DNA of 64,000 nt, taken from sequence record PV805630.1; one strand, written 5' to 3'. The position numbers and the translations under genes were made by a program. Each line of letters opens with the position of its first letter. Position 1 is the stretch's first letter. This DNA is from a phage. Below the pieces are notes generated by a model, which had not been told where the DNA came from, ran no database searches, and worked only from the letters and a program-made list of their open reading frames with translations. This document shows positions 2-11,263 of the stretch, one piece after another.

Positions 2-646
2 AACCGTTACGTATGGGTACTGCCTGACAACTTCCATGCTGTCATTAAGGTCATGGTTCCAGAAGTACAGACCGTTAACTTCTTAGGTAAGCCATTCGAC
101 ATCACCCGTATGGTACAGGGTACTGAAGATAAGACTCGTATGCTCTCTGCTAACATCACTCACTCTATTGATGGGATGGTGGTACGTGAAATGCTGCGTC
201 GTTGTAACTTCAACATGAACCAGGTGAACTATGTTAAGTCCCTCTGTGAAGGAACCAGTGAGTATATGCTGGGTACTAGCGGGAACTACGACATGGTTAG
301 TCAACTGTGGCATAACTATGAGAAATCAGGATTCCTGTCTACCCGTATCTTTGATTATCTGGATTCTGACTCAATTAAACTGGTTGATACAGATGTAATC
401 ATGGCTATGATTAATACTATGCCTAAGAAACCATTCCCTGTAATGACTGTACATGACTGCTTCCGTTGTCATCCTAACTACGGTAATGATCTGCGTCGTC
501 AGTACAATCAGATTCTGTCTGACATTGCTAAGAGTGATCTACTGGGCTTCATCCTGTCTCAGGTACTGGGACAAGAGTTCTCTGCTGGTAAGCTGGATGA
601 CAGCCTCTGGCAGGACATCCTTGAAACAGACTATGCGTTAAGTTAA
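2..646 (+). CDS. Phage single-subunit RNA polymerase (N4 RNAP II large-subunit-like), C-terminal part; 5' end lies outside the window
   Basis: Open frame from the window edge. Translation has a T7-RNAP-like motif C (TVHDCF vs T7 HDSFGT) and a C-terminal tail ILETDYALS resembling the T7 RNAP C-terminus. Sits directly upstream of the N4 gp17-like gene. Confidence 0.6.
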   Translation, partial: NRYVWVLPDNFHAVIKVMVPEVQTVNFLGKPFDITRMVQGTEDKTRMLSANITHSIDGMVVREMLRRCNFNMNQVNYVKSLCEGTSEYMLGTSGNYDMVSQLWHNYEKSGFLSTRIFDYLDSDSIKLVDTDVIMAMINTMPKKPFPVMTVHDCFRCHPNYGNDLRRQYNQILSDIAKSDLLGFILSQVLGQEFSAGKLDDSLWQDILETDYALS

Positions 647-1834: not shown

Positions 1835-1864
1835 GACCTCCCTATTGAAGGGAGGTCTTTTTTG
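1835..1864 (+). terminator. Rho-independent terminator after the decoration-protein gene
   Basis: Perfect 8-bp stem gacctccc / gggaggtc with loop tattgaa, followed by ttttttg. Confidence 0.65.
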
Positions 1865-2462: not shown

Positions 2463-2789
2463 ATGAAAACTTTAATTGCTGTTGTTCTAGTAGCTTTATC
2501 AGTTCTTTCCTTCGGTGCTCAAGCATCTAGTCGTGCAACCTTGTTGGAATCTGCTGCTGATTACAAAGCTAATAATGCAAACTTTGTGAACCAGGGTTAC
2601 TTCATGGGCATGGTTACTATGGGTGTGGAAGCAGGAAAGAATTGTGTACCTGACGGTATAAAATTAGGGCACATTTTTGACAGAGTGGCCTCTATTATTC
2701 TGTATGACCGAAAGGTTAATGCAGTAAAAGTACCATCAGACATGATTCTGTTAGCGATTGATACAGCGTATCCCTGCGTTAAATCTTAA
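2463..2789 (+). CDS. Secreted/periplasmic hypothetical protein
   Basis: N-terminal signal-peptide-like segment MKTLIAVVLVALSVLSFGAQASS; 108 aa. Confidence 0.35.
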   Translation: MKTLIAVVLVALSVLSFGAQASSRATLLESAADYKANNANFVNQGYFMGMVTMGVEAGKNCVPDGIKLGHIFDRVASIILYDRKVNAVKVPSDMILLAIDTAYPCVKS

Positions 2790-2823
2790 TTAGTAATTCC
2801 ATTAACTTTAGGAGAGTAAGTAA

Positions 2824-3876
2824 ATGGCGAGCATTGACTCCTTGACTGTATGTAATACACGCCAAGCCCGTAACTTTATCATCCGTGCCCTGCAAGCAGG
2901 TAACGTACCGTTCCTGACTTCATCACCGGGCATGGGTAAATCTGCAATTATCCGCTCTGTTGCAGAAGAATTTGGCATGAAGCTGATTGACCATCGTCTG
3001 TCTACTTCTGCCCCGGAAGACTTGTCTGGTCTACCATTCCGTAATGGTGACCGTGCAGAGTTTATTCCATTTGCTGACTTGTTCCCTATCGAGGGAGACG
3101 AAGTACCGGAAGGATATAATGGCTGGCTCCTGTTCCTTGATGAGTTCAACTCAGCTAAGAAAGAAGTAGTAGCTGCTGCATACAAACTGATTCTCGACCG
3201 TATGACTGGACAGAAAAAACTTCACCCTAATGTGATGATTATCTGTGCCGGTAACAAAGCTACTGACCGTGCTATCGTTAACCCACTGGGTACTGCAATG
3301 CAGTCTCGTGTTGTCCACTTCGAAATGGAACTTAACTTCGACATCTTTGTTGAAGACGTAATGATTCCACAAGAATGGGATGAGCGTCTGGTTGCATTCT
3401 TACATGCTAACCCTGGTTATCTGCATGACTTCGACCCTGCCCATAAGAACAAAACATTCTGTTGCCCTCGTACCTGGGACTTTGTTAACAAAGACCTCAA
3501 GAACCGACCAGAAGGTGCTCTGCCTGATGAAGATTCTATCTACTATGCAGGCCACGTTACTGCCGGTAAAGCTACAGAGTTTGTTCAGTTCACCCAGGTA
3601 TACAATCGTATGATTACGATTGAGAAGGTAGTCAAAGACCCTTTGGGCTGTGCACTACCGGAAGATAATAACCTGTGTTGGGCTACCGTTAACCATCTGG
3701 CTAACAAGACTACAGAAGAGAACTTCGTTGATGTACTTAAGTACATTGAGCGATTCAAAACGTTCACTCATAAGATTCTGTACTTCCGTACAGCAGGTAA
3801 AGCATTACCAGAAATTCAGGCTACCCCTGAATGGCGTAAGGCTGCTGCCAATATTTCTCGTTACATTCACGGATAA
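2824..3876 (+). CDS. MoxR-like AAA+ ATPase
   Basis: Walker A SSPGMGKSAI and Walker B LLFLDEFNSA, followed by a MoxR-like helper region; AGGAGAG RBS. Confidence 0.6.
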   Translation: MASIDSLTVCNTRQARNFIIRALQAGNVPFLTSSPGMGKSAIIRSVAEEFGMKLIDHRLSTSAPEDLSGLPFRNGDRAEFIPFADLFPIEGDEVPEGYNGWLLFLDEFNSAKKEVVAAAYKLILDRMTGQKKLHPNVMIICAGNKATDRAIVNPLGTAMQSRVVHFEMELNFDIFVEDVMIPQEWDERLVAFLHANPGYLHDFDPAHKNKTFCCPRTWDFVNKDLKNRPEGALPDEDSIYYAGHVTAGKATEFVQFTQVYNRMITIEKVVKDPLGCALPEDNNLCWATVNHLANKTTEENFVDVLKYIERFKTFTHKILYFRTAGKALPEIQATPEWRKAAANISRYIHG

Positions 3877-3883
3877 TCACAAC

Positions 3884-5059
3884 ATGAACCAGATACCTCA
3901 GCACACACTTAGTGATGAACAACTCATGCGCGAGTATGACCGTATTCAGGCCCAAGCCTTTCTAGGCAAGTCTGCTGCGTTTTTTGGTTCATTGCTGTGT
4001 AGTCTTAAGTTCTCATGGAAACGTGAGGACTGTCCTACTGCATGTACTGACGGGATAGAACTTCATTTCAACCCAGACTTCTTTATATGGATGTGCCCAG
4101 ATGCAAGAGAAACAGTGCTAATGCACGAACTCTGGCATGTGGCATATCTGCATGGAATCCGTTGTGGAAGCCGTGACCCAGAAGTCTGGAACCAGGCATG
4201 TGACCACTTCATTAACCTTCAGTTAGAGGAAGATGGTTACAAGTTCACCGGTATCGACGAAGGCATTTGCAAAGACCCTCAATATAAAGGATGGGTCGAA
4301 GAAGACATCTACGATGATCTGATGAAGAACCCTCAGAAAAGGCAGAAGCCGTCAGGGGGTATCGGAGCAGGTCTTGCTGGCGACATGAAAGCTCCCTCTT
4401 CGGGGCAGTCCCAGGGTGCTGTTGTCAACAACGTTGTACGTGCAATGCAAAGCCAGAAGATGGCTGGTGGAACAATGCCCGGTAAAGGTGCTGGTCGTAT
4501 GGAAGAGGTTATTACCCAATTCCTTAAACCAGTGGTTCCATGGCAGGAAGTCCTGCTGAACTTCTTTACCGACATCGATGACACACACTATACGTGGGCC
4601 AGACCTAACCGTCGTTTCACTGACGTCTATCTACCTTCTATGGAAGATGATGAAGGACGCTTACGACACTTAGCCTACTTTGAGGATGTATCTGGTTCCA
4701 TTAGTAGTGCTGACTCTCTGCGTTTTAACTCAGAGGTTGCCTACGTTAAGAGCCAGTTCAATCCTAAGAAGATGACCCTAATTACCTTCGACGATATTAT
4801 CCAAGAAGAAATAGACATCACTGAAGAAGATACTTTTGAAGAGATTAAGATTACTGGACGAGGGGGTACAAACCTTGAACCAGTGCGCGAATGGATTATT
4901 AAGAATAAGCCAACCGCTGCAATCATATTCTCTGATATGTATGTTCGTCCTATGGAAGAATTACCATTTGATATCCCTATCATCTGGTGCGTTCTGAATA
5001 ATCCCAATGCTACCGTACCTTTTGGGGAGGTAGTTCATATCCCTAAAGGAATGAAATAA
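3884..5059 (+). CDS. VWA-like / HExxH metallopeptidase-like partner of the MoxR ATPase (DUF2201-like)
   Basis: Track ORF starts at 3650 inside the upstream gene; in-frame ATG at 3884 lies just after the ATPase stop. Translation contains HExxH (MHELWHVAYLHG) and a C-terminal VWA-like region. Confidence 0.5.
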   Translation: MNQIPQHTLSDEQLMREYDRIQAQAFLGKSAAFFGSLLCSLKFSWKREDCPTACTDGIELHFNPDFFIWMCPDARETVLMHELWHVAYLHGIRCGSRDPEVWNQACDHFINLQLEEDGYKFTGIDEGICKDPQYKGWVEEDIYDDLMKNPQKRQKPSGGIGAGLAGDMKAPSSGQSQGAVVNNVVRAMQSQKMAGGTMPGKGAGRMEEVITQFLKPVVPWQEVLLNFFTDIDDTHYTWARPNRRFTDVYLPSMEDDEGRLRHLAYFEDVSGSISSADSLRFNSEVAYVKSQFNPKKMTLITFDDIIQEEIDITEEDTFEEIKITGRGGTNLEPVREWIIKNKPTAAIIFSDMYVRPMEELPFDIPIIWCVLNNPNATVPFGEVVHIPKGMK

Positions 5060-5565
5060 TGATTGTTAATGGTAATTCTCTATACCGTTCATCTCAATTG
5101 CTGGATGTCCCAGACCGTAAGGTATCCGAGCATGGTGTAAGCTATGGATTAGGTGAAGCTGGTTACGATATTCGTATCAAACAAGACATTACCTTCTATC
5201 GCTTATTTGGGTTGATTCCAATGGTGAAAATCGTTGATGGAAAGCAAGTATCACGCCATCTCGGTAAATTCGCATTGGCTTCCGCAATTGAGAAATTCAA
5301 CATGTCACCCTCCTGTGTAGCTATCGTTCACGATAAGTCCACATGGGCAAGACGTGCATTATCTGTGTTCAATACCGTAATAGAACCAGGATGGAAAGGG
5401 TATCTTACTCTCGAACTGGTCTATCATGGTCGTAAGAAACTGCATATCCCGGCTGGTGCTGGGATAGCTCAAGTATTATTTCATCTGGTTCAAGAACCTG
5501 CCACATATACGGGCAAGTACAATAACCAGGAAAACAAACCAGTAGCTGCAAGAAGCAGTAAATAA
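5059..5565 (+). CDS. dcd: dCTP deaminase / dUTPase-superfamily protein
   Basis: 168 aa with a dUTPase-fold-like motif (GVSYGLGEAGYDIRI); TAATG overlap with the upstream gene. Confidence 0.45.
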   Translation: MIVNGNSLYRSSQLLDVPDRKVSEHGVSYGLGEAGYDIRIKQDITFYRLFGLIPMVKIVDGKQVSRHLGKFALASAIEKFNMSPSCVAIVHDKSTWARRALSVFNTVIEPGWKGYLTLELVYHGRKKLHIPAGAGIAQVLFHLVQEPATYTGKYNNQENKPVAARSSK

Positions 5566-5574
5566 GGAAACAAC

Positions 5575-5775
5575 ATGTCTGTATTTCAAGTAACTCCTGT
5601 TGACAGTACCCAACGTAAAACTATTGTTGCAACTAACGTAGTAGACGTAGATGAAACTCCGGCTGGTGCTGTAATCCATCTCATTGATGGGCGAACTGTA
5701 ACTGTAAAAGAAAGCTATCGTTCAGTACGTGGTTACGTCCGTAAAGCTTTGACTGCTGTCTCTGATGCAGAGTAA
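5575..5775 (+). CDS. Hypothetical protein
   Basis: 66-aa ORF with AAGGAAA RBS. Confidence 0.3.
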   Translation: MSVFQVTPVDSTQRKTIVATNVVDVDETPAGAVIHLIDGRTVTVKESYRSVRGYVRKALTAVSDAE

Positions 5776-5848
5776 GTAGCTGCCTAAATAGCCCGACATA
5801 GTTGGGCTATTTGTGAAGAAACTAACTCAACCTCACATAGGAACCATC

Positions 5849-6109
5849 ATGGAATCTTTAGCAGCAATTCTCGTTCTGTTATTTGCACTTGCTGTATACC
5901 TTATCCCTACTATTATTGCTTTTGCACGAGGCCATGCCTCTAAGTGGGGCATTGGTGTACTCAATATCGTATTAGGCTGGTCTTTAGTCTTCTGGGTAGT
6001 AGCACTGATTTGGTCACTGTCTAATAAAGGACAGTCTCAGACTACAATCGTTAACGTTGGTAGTGGTAACCAGTACAACGTGTCTCAAACGAGCCAGTCT
6101 GATAAGTAA
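5849..6109 (+). CDS. Two-helix inner-membrane protein, superinfection-immunity (Imm)-like
   Basis: Track ORF starts at GTG 5813; in-frame ATG at 5849. Two TM helices with a motif (IPTIIAFARGH ... NIVLGWSLVFWVVALIWS) resembling the T4 Imm family as recalled. Confidence 0.4.
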   Translation: MESLAAILVLLFALAVYLIPTIIAFARGHASKWGIGVLNIVLGWSLVFWVVALIWSLSNKGQSQTTIVNVGSGNQYNVSQTSQSDK

Positions 6110-6184
6110 CTAACCTAAGCATCATTGTATAGTGGTGCTTGTGGAAGTTGCTTCCAGCTCATTACTTATCCATCTCCTAATCCA

Positions 6185-6211
6185 AGCCCACCTAACCCGT
6201 GGGCTTTTTTA
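6185..6211 (+). terminator. Rho-independent terminator after the Imm-like gene
   Basis: Stem agcccac / gtgggct followed by tttttt. Confidence 0.6.
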
Positions 6212-6231: not shown

Positions 6232-6675
6232 ATGCGTATCCCATTCCTAAGAAAAAGGGAACGGAATCCTGTTCTTTATAATAAAGGCATAGAGGATGAG
6301 TACGAACTCAACCATAAAGCCCGTTCCTACGCAGCAAAATTATTCATGGGGACTAGCAACCCTAATAGATTACTGGACTTTGTTTTCGAACAAGTCTTTA
6401 TCATATACAGTTTAGCTATGTCTGCTGGTTCACAAGAAATAAGTGATAAGGCAAGATACGCTCTCTGTATGCTCCGGAAAGAGTACGAAGCCATCCTGTA
6501 TGAAGACTTGTACTCCTTTAAGAAAGAAACCGCTGTAGCGTGTTCTGTGGCTCTTACTGAAGGTATAGCAGTATTACAAGAACTACCCCGTAGTGAATTT
6601 AAGCTGGTATATGTACAGGCCAGGAGAATTACAGAAAACCGTAGTGGTATTACCAACTATCTAAGGTCATTCTAA
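6232..6675 (+). CDS. Hypothetical protein
   Basis: 147-aa ORF following a rho-independent terminator. Confidence 0.3.
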   Translation: MRIPFLRKRERNPVLYNKGIEDEYELNHKARSYAAKLFMGTSNPNRLLDFVFEQVFIIYSLAMSAGSQEISDKARYALCMLRKEYEAILYEDLYSFKKETAVACSVALTEGIAVLQELPRSEFKLVYVQARRITENRSGITNYLRSF

Positions 6676-7619
6676 TGATTAAGGCAACTGTCATTGCAGA
6701 TTCCGTTCATCATGTAACGGGTACTCGTATTACTACCTTTGAATTGGTTTATCCTCGATTCATTCACAGTGAGTTTATGACCCACCGTGTATTCAACCGC
6801 AATGCTTCAAGTAGTCGTGCTATCCCTACTTCTAAGTTTATTGAACAGGTTCGTAATGAACCAGTAATGCCAAGTCACTGGGGCAAGAACCAGAAAGGTA
6901 TGCAGGCATTTGAAGAATTGTCTGAAGACCAGCGTAGTGACGCAACCTTTATCTGGGAACAAGCTGCGTCAAGTGCTGCTACCTATGCTGAAATGCTACG
7001 TCGTGGACAAGTACATAAGCAGATTGTTAACCGTATTCTGGAACCATTCACACATATCCGTGTAGTGGTAACTTCAACTAGCTGGGCTAACTTTTACGGA
7101 TTGCGTGACCATGAAGATGCTCAACCGGAGATTCGTGAACTGGCTCAAGCAATGCGTAAGGCTCATAATGAAAGTGTTCCATCTAAGCTGTCCCAAGGTG
7201 TGTGGCATCTGCCTTATATTCGCAAGATTGATTGTATTAACGCTTACGATCATTGCAAACATCAACGAGTTACTTGTGATAAACCAAGTGATGAAGAAGT
7301 TTTAGGCTTACTGCTTAAAGTCTCTGCTGCTCGTTGTGCTCGTGCCTCCTATAACAACTTTGAAGGCAAGCCATCTACTATTAGTGATGACCTTGCTCTC
7401 TTTGCTAAGTTGGTAGAGAAACAACCAATTCATGCATCACCTACTGAGCATCAAGCTACCCCGATGGACTTCAGTACCAAGTTTGTTAACAACCAGAACC
7501 CATTAACCTGGGAACAAGGTGTTACTTCAATGGACCGTGAAGGTAAGCTGTATTCTGGTAATCTGTTAGATTTCATCCAATTCCGTAAACTAATCCCCGG
7601 AGAAACAATTACAGAATGA
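6675..7619 (+). CDS. thyX: ThyX-like FAD-dependent thymidylate synthase
   Basis: Translation aligns by eye to ThyX signature regions: FMTHRVFNRNASSSRA (cf. FRHRIASYNELSGRY) and WANFYGLRDHEDAQPEIRELAQAM (cf. [24 protein letters not shown]). Confidence 0.55.
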   Translation: MIKATVIADSVHHVTGTRITTFELVYPRFIHSEFMTHRVFNRNASSSRAIPTSKFIEQVRNEPVMPSHWGKNQKGMQAFEELSEDQRSDATFIWEQAASSAATYAEMLRRGQVHKQIVNRILEPFTHIRVVVTSTSWANFYGLRDHEDAQPEIRELAQAMRKAHNESVPSKLSQGVWHLPYIRKIDCINAYDHCKHQRVTCDKPSDEEVLGLLLKVSAARCARASYNNFEGKPSTISDDLALFAKLVEKQPIHASPTEHQATPMDFSTKFVNNQNPLTWEQGVTSMDREGKLYSGNLLDFIQFRKLIPGETITE

Positions 7620-8698: not shown

Positions 8699-11263
8699 AT
8701 GTTAGTCGCAGATACCAATCAATCAGCCACTTCAGCGACACTGGGTGGCAAAGAAGCAATCGCCTTTGGCATCTCTGATGACCCGGCATTCTTTCACGTA
8801 TTAAGTACTTCCTTGTATAACAACCCTACACTGGCAGTAGTCCGTGAGACTATCTGTAACAGTTGGGATGCTCATATTGAAGCAGGTAAGACTGATACTC
8901 CTATCCGTATCACTATTGATACTGACAATTTTATTACCTTCCGTGACTTCGGTAACGGTATCCCAGATGAACTCATTGGTTCCATTTATGGTGTCTATGG
9001 GGCATCTACCAAGAAGTCCAACAGTAGTGTTACTGGTGGCTTTGGTTTGGGATGTAAATCCCCATTCGCTTATACAGATAGCTTCCAGGTTACCTCATGG
9101 AACCAAGGAAAGATGTCTGTATATAACGTAGCTAAGGCTGCAATTGAGAATGATGGTAAACCGGGTATTGTTCCTATTGTTACTGGTATTCCTACTGAGG
9201 AATCTGGTCTGGAAGTTAAATTCCAGTTGGGTAAACATGATGTAAATACCTTTGTACATTACATCACATCAATTGTATTTAACGGTGAAATTAAGGCTGA
9301 GCTTAGTATTCCCAAACTTGTTCGTGAAGAAACGGGTAATAGTATTCAGCAGGGTAACTACACTCTACTGAATACTCTAGGTATGTCATTTGAACCTGGT
9401 TCATATGATATGTCTGATAGATGGTATCAAGGCTATATGGGTAACAGTACCATCTTTGTTCGCTACGGTAACGTAATGTACCCAATAGTATCTAGTCCAG
9501 CTAGTGAAGAGGCTGTGGGTCTTATTCTCAACTTCATGAATATCATTGGAGCTGATAATTTAGTAGTTCAGGCTGCACCGGATACACTAGCGATTGCTCC
9601 TAGTCGTGAAACTCTGTCTAACCAGAAGTTAACCGACGATGGCATTACTGCTCTATGTGTAGACTTAGTAGACCGTATGGAGAAAGAGATTAAAGCTAAA
9701 ATTCCTGAAGCTATTAAGCAGATTGAAGAATATGCCTCCCAATCTTCTGCCCGTGACTGGGAATACCCATCTTTCCTTCTTGCTGTTACAGATGAGATTG
9801 TTCGCCGCTATATGTCCTCCAGTTTGTGGGCTAAGCAGCGTAAACATCATGTTAAGCACTGGCGTAATCTATCCAATAAGGCATTACTAGCTCGCCCTGA
9901 ATATGCAGGGCTTAAAAAACTGTATAGTAAGGCTATGCGTGCTCTTAAGTGTACGCGTGAAGATAAAACATACTATCAATTCCAGGATTTAGTATATCGG
10001 CATCTGCACTTACCTCAGCTTGCTGCTTTAAAAGCTACAGGTATTAAGTGGTCTGGTTACATAATGAACCAGGGTAGCAGTGTTGGCCTGGTAACAGGTA
10101 AACTTACTGACTACTTTAAGATGGGCTATAACAGCCATTTGGGTATCGGTATATTCACTACCAAGAACGTTGTAGTTACAAGACGTTTATCTGACTGTGC
10201 AGACTCTTTCTCATACTTCCCAGAGTACATCCAAGGTGACCTGGAGCGAACAGCTTTTGTTCACGTCGTTGGTCCTAAGAAAGGGGAAGCAGAGAAAGCT
10301 GTAGCTAAGTTCACTGCTATGGGTTATCGGGTTATTGACCTTACTCAATATAATGAGTGGGACAGGCCAACTAACTTCCGCAGGGAACAGGCTAAGATAG
10401 CTGCTGAGAAGCGGGCTAAGACAATAGCTGCCAATAAAACCAAAGCAGGTGGTAAAACTAATGCACTGGTTTCATTGAATGCAGTACTTGGTACTTCCCC
10501 TGTACGAGATAAAAATGAAGATTTGGTATCTAAACCACACATTGACAAGGATTTTGCTGACCCAAGATTCCATGAGGAACCTAGATTCGTCGAAGTGGGA
10601 CAGCCTAAGTACTACGTACCAGCCAGTCAGGTTGTTTCTGGTAGACCAGAAACTGCCAAGATTGGAACCATGTGGAAATGGTGGGAGCTGTCAGATGAGA
10701 TGAAAGCAGAAACTGTTGTCTGCCGTAATCAAATCGAAGTTAACAAGGCCAAACGTCGTGGTGCTATTCACATTGACGATATTCGTCTTAATGAATTGAT
10801 GTCTGTTATTACCAGCAAGGGATTCAAGAAGTACGCCACTGAACAACGTAACGGTGTTCTTGAGTATCTTGATTTAAATGACAAAGAATACTGTGAAATC
10901 CTCGACATTCTTGGACTAACATTCAAACCATTACAGAGTCTGGTTCTTAAACCAGAGTACGAATGGGCATGTGACTTCCTAAGAAATCATTCAAGTAACA
11001 AAGATAAACTGGTTGAGATGGGCCTCATTAAGTCAGTAGATGACTTGGAACCATATGTAAGGATGGTTAATCCTCGTATGCATAAGTATTTCAAAGTACT
11101 TAACGAGTACAAAGGGTTATTTAGATATAGCTGGAATGATAATGACATCCTGCAAAGCCTGGATTTGAGTAGATTAATCAAACATCTCAAGAAAAATCCA
11201 GAGGATATTCCTGGGTTTAAGCCCCTCTACCGTAATCGTCTAAATAAACTGAAAGGTAAATAA
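8699..11263 (+). CDS. rIIA: rIIA-like protein with GHKL-type ATPase domain
   Basis: 854 aa; N-terminal GHKL-ATPase-like boxes (RETICNSWDAH, DFGNGIP, GGFGLGCKS). Followed 5 nt later by an rIIB-sized gene, as in T4 and N4. Confidence 0.6.
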   Translation: MLVADTNQSATSATLGGKEAIAFGISDDPAFFHVLSTSLYNNPTLAVVRETICNSWDAHIEAGKTDTPIRITIDTDNFITFRDFGNGIPDELIGSIYGVYGASTKKSNSSVTGGFGLGCKSPFAYTDSFQVTSWNQGKMSVYNVAKAAIENDGKPGIVPIVTGIPTEESGLEVKFQLGKHDVNTFVHYITSIVFNGEIKAELSIPKLVREETGNSIQQGNYTLLNTLGMSFEPGSYDMSDRWYQGYMGNSTIFVRYGNVMYPIVSSPASEEAVGLILNFMNIIGADNLVVQAAPDTLAIAPSRETLSNQKLTDDGITALCVDLVDRMEKEIKAKIPEAIKQIEEYASQSSARDWEYPSFLLAVTDEIVRRYMSSSLWAKQRKHHVKHWRNLSNKALLARPEYAGLKKLYSKAMRALKCTREDKTYYQFQDLVYRHLHLPQLAALKATGIKWSGYIMNQGSSVGLVTGKLTDYFKMGYNSHLGIGIFTTKNVVVTRRLSDCADSFSYFPEYIQGDLERTAFVHVVGPKKGEAEKAVAKFTAMGYRVIDLTQYNEWDRPTNFRREQAKIAAEKRAKTIAANKTKAGGKTNALVSLNAVLGTSPVRDKNEDLVSKPHIDKDFADPRFHEEPRFVEVGQPKYYVPASQVVSGRPETAKIGTMWKWWELSDEMKAETVVCRNQIEVNKAKRRGAIHIDDIRLNELMSVITSKGFKKYATEQRNGVLEYLDLNDKEYCEILDILGLTFKPLQSLVLKPEYEWACDFLRNHSSNKDKLVEMGLIKSVDDLEPYVRMVNPRMHKYFKVLNEYKGLFRYSWNDNDILQSLDLSRLIKHLKKNPEDIPGFKPLYRNRLNKLKGK

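Follow-up and report, generated by a model that had tools for sequence, protein, structure and literature searches.

Two neighboring genes of an N4-like phage encode a MoxR-like ATPase and a VWA partner with a predicted metallopeptidase domain

The window considered here is a 64,000-nucleotide (nt) stretch of phage DNA (sequence record PV805630.1), in which two adjacent open reading frames (ORFs) occupy positions 2824-5059 of the plus strand, the strand of all features given below. An initial annotation, made from the sequence alone, had read them as a MoxR-like AAA+ ATPase and a partner with an HExxH motif and a VWA-like region, and its coordinates are borne out. The phage belongs to Gamaleyavirus (Schitoviridae, the N4-like phages) and is closely related to Escherichia phage vB_EcoP_G7C, to which region 2500-5600 is 95% identical over its full length; coverage of this region is 80% or more in 57 phage records. 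The two genes are orthologues of N4 gp24 and gp25, names that we use throughout. The first (2824..3876) encodes a 350-amino-acid (aa) AAA+ ATPase of the MoxR/midasin/dynein (AAA_5) group, and the second (3884..5059) a protein of 391 aa in which a predicted zincin-like peptidase domain is followed by a flexible linker and a VWA domain with a metal ion-dependent adhesion site (MIDAS). The pair is ancient and already known, having been annotated as ATPase and vWFA in N4-like phages since 2009; in G7C, gp24 is listed as "ATPase; similar to N4 gp24" (YP_004782149.1) and gp25 as "VWA-like domain-containing protein; similar to N4 gp25" (YP_004782151.1). Both belong to the 14 core genes of N4-like phages, and both are middle transcripts in N4 (Chan et al. 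2014, PMC4193335). As a 95%-identical relative of a phage already sequenced, the window does not extend the set of known instances. What is added here is a firm placement of the ATPase by midasin and MoxR proteins, evidence from plasmids that bears on the idea of a role in virion assembly, and a set of intein and intron sites that mark critical residues.

Architecture and conservation of gp24 and gp25

The Walker A (SSPGMGKS, aa 33-40, 2920..2943) and Walker B (LLFLDEFN, aa 102-109, 3127..3150) motifs of gp24 are present as first quoted, and are followed by a sensor-1 asparagine (CAGN, N144) and a candidate arginine finger (QSRV, R162) at 3244..3312, whose roles we assign from the AAA+ topology of the predicted structure. 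Residues G38, K39 and S40 of Walker A show no variation among 31 N4-like homologues or among 16 sequences from six phage lineages, and D106 and E107 of Walker B, N144 and R162 are likewise invariant. A further conserved segment, DHRLSTSAPEDLSGLP (aa 56-71, 2989..3036), follows strand beta2 and leads up to a predicted helix-2 insert hairpin (aa 72-79); its residues D56, R58, P64, D66, G69 and P71 are invariant, and it aligns with the equivalent part of midasin AAA domains. The AlphaFold2 model of gp24 has an AAA+ core (predicted local distance difference test score, pLDDT, of 86; predicted template modeling score of 0.81), in which strands 72-74 and 77-79, between beta2 (53-58) and beta3 (101-106), form the helix-2 insert hairpin, while short strands at 127-134, ahead of the sensor-1 strand beta4 (137-144), form a pre-sensor-1 hairpin. 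It is the helix-2 insert that defines the MoxR clade (dynein-midasin, MoxR, YifB and chelatases), which is generally coupled to a VWA co-chaperone (Kaur et al. 2020, PMC7159879). The insert of gp24 has a pLDDT of only 54-71, and this clade feature is seen at the level of the model only. The folds closest to gp24 are those of dynein, midasin, CbbQ and NorQ.

Sequence searches gave the same placement. With the single gp24 sequence, the best match in the PDB was a midasin AAA module (E=5.7e-5). We then used a profile (A3) that joins the N4-like gp24 proteins with their homologues from RaK2, Atu_ph07, cyanophage S-TIM5, CR9 and one rV5-like phage. Among the best 60 of its 132 PDB matches, the top five were all midasin (6e-14 to 3e-13), with the whole alpha/beta subdomain covered, and the best AAA+ protein other than midasin followed at 7.5e-4, through the P-loop only. 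In Pfam, gp24 matched the generic AAA family above its cut-off (28.5 versus 21.2 bits, E=2.3e-6); the bpMoxR score was under the Pfam cut-off, and no AAA_3 match was listed (cut-off 27 bits). The match to PHROGs was strong (E=6.6e-134). We conclude that gp24 is a member of a distinct subfamily within the AAA_5/MoxR-midasin group. Beyond the AAA+ core, it carries a family-specific C-terminal region (aa ~187-350, 3382..3873) with a conserved CPRTW motif (aa 214-218), modeled as all-helical with pLDDT above 90. This region is kept in the homologues found on plasmids (hhalign alignments span aa 3-313 for Ralstonia, 9-339 for Simplicispira and 11-298 for Synechocystis pSYSA); that it serves as a surface for docking the partner is only a guess.

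In gp25, Pfam places DUF2201_N ("putative metallopeptidase domain") first, with 188 bits against a cut-off of 23.2 (E=3.3e-55), and DUF2201 ("VWA-like domain") behind it, with 119.1 bits against 26.4 (E=1.7e-34); in COG this family is a "predicted metal-dependent peptidase". The protein matches PHROGs at E=3.5e-144, and the database matches of the two proteins lie well outside what chance would give. In the AlphaFold2 model of gp25 (pLDDT 76), domains predicted with confidence at the N-terminus (aa ~11-150) and at the C-terminus (~263-386) are joined by a linker of low confidence (~150-260). The segment quoted in the initial annotation, MHELWHVAYLHG, lies at aa 80-91 and includes HELWH, the putative zinc-binding and catalytic motif HExxH (aa 81-85, 4124..4138). 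H81, E82 and H85 are invariant in 31 N4-like sequences; across six lineages (Schitoviridae, RaK2, Atu_ph07, S-TIM5, CR9/rV5-like phages and phage G), H81 and H85 are invariant in all 16 sequences and E82 is found in 15 of them, Atu_ph07 having HQxxH. Further on, within A105-C106-D107 (4196..4204), where some relatives carry an intein, D107 is a candidate for the third metal ligand and lies on the long helix that follows; it is invariant in every lineage, and H90 nearly so. In the model, HELWH lies on helix 72-87, preceded by strands 42-45, 53-55 and 59-62, and D107 lies on helix 99-116. With this order of a three-stranded sheet, an HExxH helix and a long helix bearing D107, the predicted N-terminal domain resembles a minimal zincin, a candidate fold that is based on the Pfam match, the motifs and the predicted topology.

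The linker (aa ~150-260, 4331..4663; pLDDT 35-66) has low-complexity stretches, among which the alignment reveals islands of invariant residues (W238, R243-R244 and Y249-x-P251). The C-terminal domain (aa ~263-386, 4670..5041) has a true Rossmann-like alpha/beta VWA fold with an intact MIDAS motif (D268-V-S270-G-S272, T329 and D351), and all 50 matches listed when gp25 was compared with the PDB by Foldseek were VWA domains. D268, S270, S272, T329 and D351 are invariant in the 31 N4-like sequences and in the 16 sequences of the six lineages. Given the intact motif, the MIDAS of gp25 would be expected to bind an acidic residue of a ligand through a metal. No hydrophobic segment was found in the sequence of gp24 or gp25, so both proteins should be cytoplasmic. 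The searches thus placed the ATPase in no unrelated AAA clade and did not find the partner devoid of a VWA or metallopeptidase-like fold, the two outcomes that had been named as contradicting the original assignment.

The two genes are closely packed. A Shine-Dalgarno sequence, AGGAG (2810..2814), can be read 9 nt 5' of the ATPase ATG. The start codon of gp25 is ATG 3884, 7 nt past the gp24 stop, in agreement with all homologues; a mechanical ORF list had it start at GTG 3650, inside gp24, which we reject. Its stop overlaps, as TAATG, the start of the gene for dCTP deaminase (gp26 orthologue, 5059..5565), a translationally overlapped neighbor. This gene was detected 3' of gp25 on the same strand in 57 of 77 related contigs and was absent from the others, a few of which end shortly past gp25. 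A consensus scan yielded two terminator-like hairpins with T-runs, at 1835..1857 and 6184..6206, likely the upstream and downstream boundaries of the transcription unit; the position of the former agrees with a stem-loop annotated after gp17 in G7C. The unit that they bracket comprises three small ORFs, gp24, gp25, the dCTP deaminase gene, another small ORF and an Imm-like gene, and a single transcript of the middle phase likely serves for translation of gp24, gp25 and dCTP deaminase.

By synteny with G7C, the surrounding genes encode the C-terminal part of the phage RNA polymerase subunit RNAP2 (gp16; window 53-646), the Hoc-like decoration protein gp17 (963-1784), an Imm-like superinfection-immunity membrane protein (5813-6109), the FAD-dependent thymidylate synthase ThyX (6675-7619) and rIIA (8699-11263). 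The pair therefore stands within the middle-gene block, with the phage RNAP II genes and gp17 on one side and nucleotide metabolism (dCTP deaminase, ThyX, rIIA/B) on the other. The initial annotation had assigned it to a "replication-side module", a description that we do not retain, since the pair is in this middle-gene and nucleotide-metabolism block and not among replisome genes proper.

Gene pairing across phages and plasmids

We surveyed 77 related loci from IMG/VR, 73 of which include DNA 5' of the partner gene. A gp24 homologue lies upstream of the gp25 homologue, on the same strand, in all 73, separated by a median of 72 nt and at most 3.6 kilobases (kb), compared with 7 nt in the window; as G7C shows, an HNH gene can occupy the space between the two. 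The two families are also adjacent in Klebsiella jumbo phage RaK2, Agrobacterium jumbo phage Atu_ph07, cyanophage S-TIM5, Cronobacter phage CR9 and a 572-kb phage contig, and in rV5-like phages (Vequintavirinae) they lie seven genes apart. The MoxR-VWA pairing first proposed for the window thus extends to five further phage lineages and to the Synechocystis plasmid pSYSA, described below. By tblastn, gp25 was found in 728 phage records and gp24 in 828, with nearly equal counts per host genus. The gp25 family as a whole is large, 21,679 clusters (50% identity) matching at E<=1e-3, and spans N4-like, rV5-like and RaK2-like phages, cyanophages, phage contigs of ~570 kb and plasmids.

Two of these long contigs (L098 and L100 of our locus set, 570 and 572 kb), which carry a DUF2201 gene, are very large phage contigs that also encode ribosomal protein S21, ClpS, ClpP and a T4-type RNA ligase. 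In L100, an AAA_5-like ATPase gene is directly 5' of the DUF2201 gene, and in L098 the neighbors of the latter encode a 452-aa protein without Pfam matches and an acyltransferase. Long contigs that match the Atu_ph07 partner had been candidates for bacterial sequences, but the two inspected (both about 570 kb) are very large phage genomes. A scan of genome contigs for cellular homologues returned mostly N4-like contigs binned into metagenome-assembled genomes (MAGs), and cellular examples came from the plasmid collection only. We did observe gp24, gp25, dCTP deaminase and thymidylate synthase genes in N4 order within contig2 of Mesorhizobium yinganensis (727 kb, 434974-448110; L004 4854-12279), and a similar N4-order block in a 296-kb contig of a Roseococcus MAG (L003). 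N4-like phages are regarded as strictly lytic; these blocks could be integrated or remnant N4-like elements, or assembly artifacts.

On plasmids, the ATPase and DUF2201 module matches 109 records. In pSYSA of Synechocystis PCC 6803, the ATPase gene (WP_011153698.1, "MoxR family ATPase" in RefSeq) and the gene for the VWA-like protein (WP_011153697.1, "Sll7028" type) overlap by 4 nt. The former protein aligns with the gp24 profile over 268 columns (hhalign E=4.9e-56; aa 11-298, well into the C-terminal domain), a homology that, together with the midasin profile match (6e-14) and the dynein, midasin, CbbQ and NorQ folds, upholds the description of gp24 as MoxR-like. The latter has both DUF2201_N and DUF2201, as does gp25, in which these matches (3.3e-55 and 1.7e-34), the VWA fold and the intact MIDAS likewise sustain the HExxH and VWA-like regions first described. 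The neighbors of the pSYSA pair are toxin-antitoxin genes and a DUF262 gene. On a conjugative Burkholderia gladioli plasmid the module is next to genes for type IV secretion, and a Simplicispira plasmid, also conjugative, has it close to an addiction toxin and an orphan cytosine methyltransferase. A Ralstonia megaplasmid carries it as well, and Cupriavidus plasmids have similar pairs. The Ralstonia and Simplicispira ATPases are near-full-length homologues of gp24 (hhalign 5e-39 and 1e-46).

We did not count as a plasmid example pRBH2-3 of Acinetobacter baumannii (L103, PLSDB, 75,126 base pairs). It carries genes for a DNA-directed RNA polymerase, an AAA ATPase, an HNH protein and a VWA-like protein in N4-like order and has an N4-like size, and it is probably the genome of an N4-like phage deposited as a plasmid. 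The gene directly 5' of DUF2201 is in some cases a different one. In rV5-like phages and betaproteobacterial plasmids it encodes not the ATPase but a protein of about 290-330 aa, annotated "anti-sigma factor" in phage EmilHeitz (bas49_0056, L016 2912-3901; on plasmids, L102 4067-4996, L104 6101-6994 and L105 6059-6919). The EmilHeitz and B. gladioli upstream proteins, the two tested, have no Pfam matches; we considered whether they might be cryptic ATPases, which hhalign rejected for both, the real ATPase lying a few genes away.

Inteins, introns and homing genes in the pair

Both genes are invaded by selfish elements in relatives of the window. Inteins interrupt two gp25 homologues, P0364 (519 aa) and P0368 (701 aa), at precisely the A105/C106 junction, beside the invariant D107 of the putative peptidase active site. 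One is a mini-intein and the other is larger; the junctions read ...WNDA/C...HN/CDYVINN... (slashes mark the boundaries), and the Pfam matches are Intein_splicing and, below threshold, Vint (25.6 versus 27 bits). In related contigs, insertions of about 0.8 kb each split the gp24 gene at three sites, one following aa 67, another following aa 119 and the third close to aa 201-223 (interrupted loci: L032 4073-5990, L056 4081-5975 and L036 3898-5794). The L032 insert, exactly after aa 67, cuts a conserved motif between PEDL and SGLP and holds a 215-aa HNH ORF; the downstream exon is in frame and has no start codon, and part of the insert (4792-5081) matches a group I intron in Rfam with a score below threshold (26.8 bits, E=1.5e-4). 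We also note that the GenBank records of U1G, ZC03 and JA-1 annotate "ATPase (x2)" together with HNH, and that phrog_21479 and phrog_16335 look like fragments of the gp24 gene. In G7C, a 477-nt HNH homing-endonuclease gene, gp24.1 (L001 7381-7857), is inserted between gp24 and gp25. The window has at this place a 7-nt spacer (3877-3883), and thus represents the uninvaded allele.

Selfish elements typically home into conserved sites of indispensable genes. Because the inteins and the intron-like insert target D107 and the helix-2 insert, they point to these as functionally critical residues, and their landing sites fit the status of gp24 and gp25 as core genes.

Candidate functions and comparison with known systems

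Although catalogued for more than 15 years, gp24 and gp25 are among the few functionally blank genes in the core set of 14 of Schitoviridae, phages that are represented in therapy collections, and the initial view that the role of the pair in a lytic phage is not established holds in the searched literature. Its reading as a MoxR-VWA system has been published: Iyer et al. (2021, PMC7824862) described ASV44729.1/ASV44728.2 of Atu_ph07 as a MoxR AAA+ chaperone and its vWA cochaperone, the latter having a metallopeptidase at its N-terminus, and these accessions are the Atu_ph07 genes that we recovered as homologues of the window genes.

On the evidence above (domain identities, conserved catalytic and MIDAS residues, pairing of the genes and their distribution), we consider it probable that gp24 and gp25 form a two-component MoxR-VWA machine for protein remodeling, with a protease built into the adaptor. 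By analogy with characterized systems, gp24 would be a soluble AAA+ ATPase, presumably a hexameric ring, which would hold gp25 with the VWA domain docked on the ring. The metal-loaded MIDAS site of gp25 would capture an acidic side chain of the target. ATP hydrolysis could then pull or twist the adaptor together with the target, the long flexible linker of gp25 transmitting the force, and the N-terminal HExxH zincin-like domain might cut the exposed target, or gp25 itself. NorQ-NorD, CbbQ-CbbO and midasin are the models from which we infer the hexamer, the contact of gp24 with gp25, peptidase activity and the sequence of these steps.

Several observations weigh against this explanation. The AAA_5 score of gp24 is 17.7 bits, below the Pfam cut-off of 22, so that the profile check suggested with the initial annotation was positive for DUF2201_N and DUF2201, both above their cut-offs, and negative for AAA_5 with the gp24 of the window. 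Since the homologues of S-TIM5 (25.0 bits) and pSYSA (25.3 bits) exceed this cut-off, the bridge to AAA_5 holds for the gp24 family as a whole, not for the window sequence alone. No NCBIfam family was found for gp24, nor for gp25. The third metal ligand of gp25 is ambiguous, either D107 or H90 being a candidate, and neither the single sequence nor a profile gave a match to a zincin in the PDB, the weak matches to integrin I-domains being limited to the DxSGS strand. The VWA domain is minimal (about 125 aa), and its model has no obvious counterpart of the "finger" of NorD. Moreover, the Ralstonia (L104 4930-5994) and Simplicispira (L105 1416-2459) ATPases have DD instead of DE in Walker B, and the Atu_ph07 partner (L019 4705-5994) has HQxxH instead of HExxH, because of which some family members may be non-catalytic. 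One to ten genes separate the pair in rV5-like phages and several plasmids. Finally, searches of the literature (on DUF2201, on Schitoviridae with MoxR and in N4 CRISPRi-ART data) returned no experiments on gp24 or gp25 of any phage.

As for the target of the putative machine, we tentatively suggest a cytoplasmic protein, of the host or encoded by the element, whose removal or activation might aid the establishment of the mobile element. A cytoplasmic target outside the virion is favored because the ATPase-adaptor module is present on plasmids, which build no virions. The evidence leans weakly to a ranking in which such a target stands slightly above a structural protein, with metal insertion third.

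The alternative that survives best, although we judge it rather unlikely, is that the pair is a virion-assembly chaperone and processing protease that folds, assembles and trims structural proteins. Virion assembly and structural-protein processing were proposed by Iyer et al. (2021, PMC7824862) for the pair of group 2.2 jumbo phages, to which the homologous Atu_ph07 pair belongs, by analogy with a MoxR-VWA pair needed for tail development of Acidianus two-tailed virus. The gene context agrees in part: the pair comes after three virion structural genes in RaK2, between an Hsp20 gene and a structural/packaging gene in S-TIM5, and after the Hoc-like decoration gene gp17 in the window. However, homologous modules reside on the virion-less plasmids of Synechocystis (pSYSA), Burkholderia, Simplicispira and Ralstonia, and this makes the virion-assembly idea probably too narrow. 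Many of the carriers have prohead proteases of their own, as do T4-like phages, which also speaks against it. Furthermore, the N4 genes are middle and not late, and gp24 and gp25 homologues are missing from the virion proteins listed for the N4-like roseophages RPP1 and RLP1 (PMC4193335); the unit in the window includes dCTP deaminase.

The plasmid evidence invites a broader proposal, which we regard as unlikely but worth stating: gp24 and gp25 might be a general establishment weapon of mobile elements, that is, an ATP-driven, MIDAS-targeted protease common to large virulent phages, in which it is a pair of middle genes, and to conjugative or defense-island plasmids, rather than a virion-assembly chaperone. 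Its target would be a specific cytoplasmic host protein, for example a defense or stress-response factor, to be removed or activated. Two observations lead to this proposal. Plasmids carry near-full-length homologues of both proteins, with genes for type IV secretion, toxin-antitoxin systems, DUF262 or an orphan methyltransferase as neighbors, and both genes, in the usual manner of essential ones, attract homing endonucleases, introns and inteins. PADLOC gave marginal matches only for gp24 (DolB 0.0044, PDC-S03 0.039) and none for gp25.

It is less likely still that the pair inserts metal cofactors or activates an enzyme in the manner of NorQD, CoxDE, CbbQO and CobST, so as to mature or re-activate a metabolic enzyme of phage or host, such as one of nucleotide synthesis, with HExxH as a metal-binding module and not a protease. 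Most characterized MoxR-VWA pairs do act in this way (PMC13036017, PMC9976466, PMC7159879), and gp24 has a weak match to a CobS-type "porphyrin biosynthesis" PHROG (8.6e-4). Neighbors of nucleotide metabolism recur as well: N4-like phages have dCTP deaminase and ThyX there, RaK2 has thymidylate synthase and S-TIM5 has ThyX, and the contexts of Atu_ph07 and the 572-kb contig, where a glutaredoxin gene is near the pair, are counted alongside them. This synteny, however, may only mirror the usual clustering of middle genes in large virulent phages, and the plasmid contexts offer no consistent metabolic partner. Besides, a hydrolase needs the glutamate of HExxH and a metal carrier does not, yet all 31 N4-like sequences, and 15 of the 16 that span the lineages, retain this residue.

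The current database labels would imply instead that gp25 is an HNH endonuclease and gp24 a clamp-loader-like replication protein. PHROG 1314, which corresponds to the gp25 family and matches it at 3.5e-144, is labeled "HNH endonuclease", a label found on many RefSeq and GenBank records (such as those of SP5M, RaK2, GAP32, CR9 and many Vibrio phages), and phrog_168, "clamp loader", matches gp24 at 5e-6. We consider these labels almost certainly wrong, as no HNH family is among the Pfam matches of the window gp25 or of seven tested homologues, which have DUF2201_N and DUF2201 only, the midasin profile match of gp24 is ten orders of magnitude above any AAA+ protein other than midasin, and the obligatory neighbor of gp24 is a VWA protein, not a clamp. 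The HNH label is probably an annotation error seeded by the real homing-endonuclease genes beside or inside the pair (G7C gp24.1, U1G, ZC03, JA-1 and L032).

Among known systems, the nearest to the window pair is that of G7C, with the same gene order and neighbors (gp17 upstream and gp26 downstream) and a protein identity of about 97-98% (gp25 96.9%), differing by the presence of gp24.1 where the window has 7 nt. The N4 orthologues share 61% protein identity. The Atu_ph07 pair is homologous (tblastn 1e-19 for the ATPase) and alike in the two Pfam domains of the partner, in gene order, in adjacency and in the MIDAS and histidine residues, although with 23-24% identity only and HQxxH in place of HExxH. 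pSYSA has both families in the same order, but borne by a plasmid, and the betaproteobacterial plasmids differ by a gene of about 300 codons 5' of the VWA-like gene, by other intervening genes and by the DD of Walker B. A MoxR-VWA pair is also encoded by Acidianus two-tailed virus, an archaeal virus (cited through PMC7824862 and PMC7159879), and differs from the window pair in having no known peptidase domain.

In NorQ-NorD, the best described of the cellular analogues on which the proposed mechanism draws, NorQ is a hexamer; the finger of the NorD VWA domain plugs its pore and touches the post-sensor-1 loop, ATP hydrolysis twists and stretches the NorD linker, and the process depends on surface carboxylates of the target (PMC9976466, PMC13036017). 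Neither NorD nor CbbO has a peptidase domain, and both act on metabolic enzymes, while gp24 has the larger, family-specific C-terminal helical region; neither the window gp24 nor an N4-like profile (A2) matched NorQ or CbbQ by sequence at E up to 1. Midasin (Rea1/Mdn1 of eukaryotes) is one giant chain with six fused AAA modules and no peptidase, and acts on pre-ribosomes. Its MIDAS domain holds the assembly factors that midasin removes by one of their acidic residues. Proteins of the CLCA1 type have a zincin metalloprotease domain followed by a VWA domain and are self-cleaving. CLCA1 differs from gp25 in being a secreted eukaryotic protein without an AAA+ partner, and the parallel between the two protease domains is one of architecture; nevertheless, as predicted for gp25, it unites an HExxH protease and a MIDAS-bearing VWA domain in one chain, and Foldseek ranks its VWA domain first among the matches of gp25 (E=5.5e-4).

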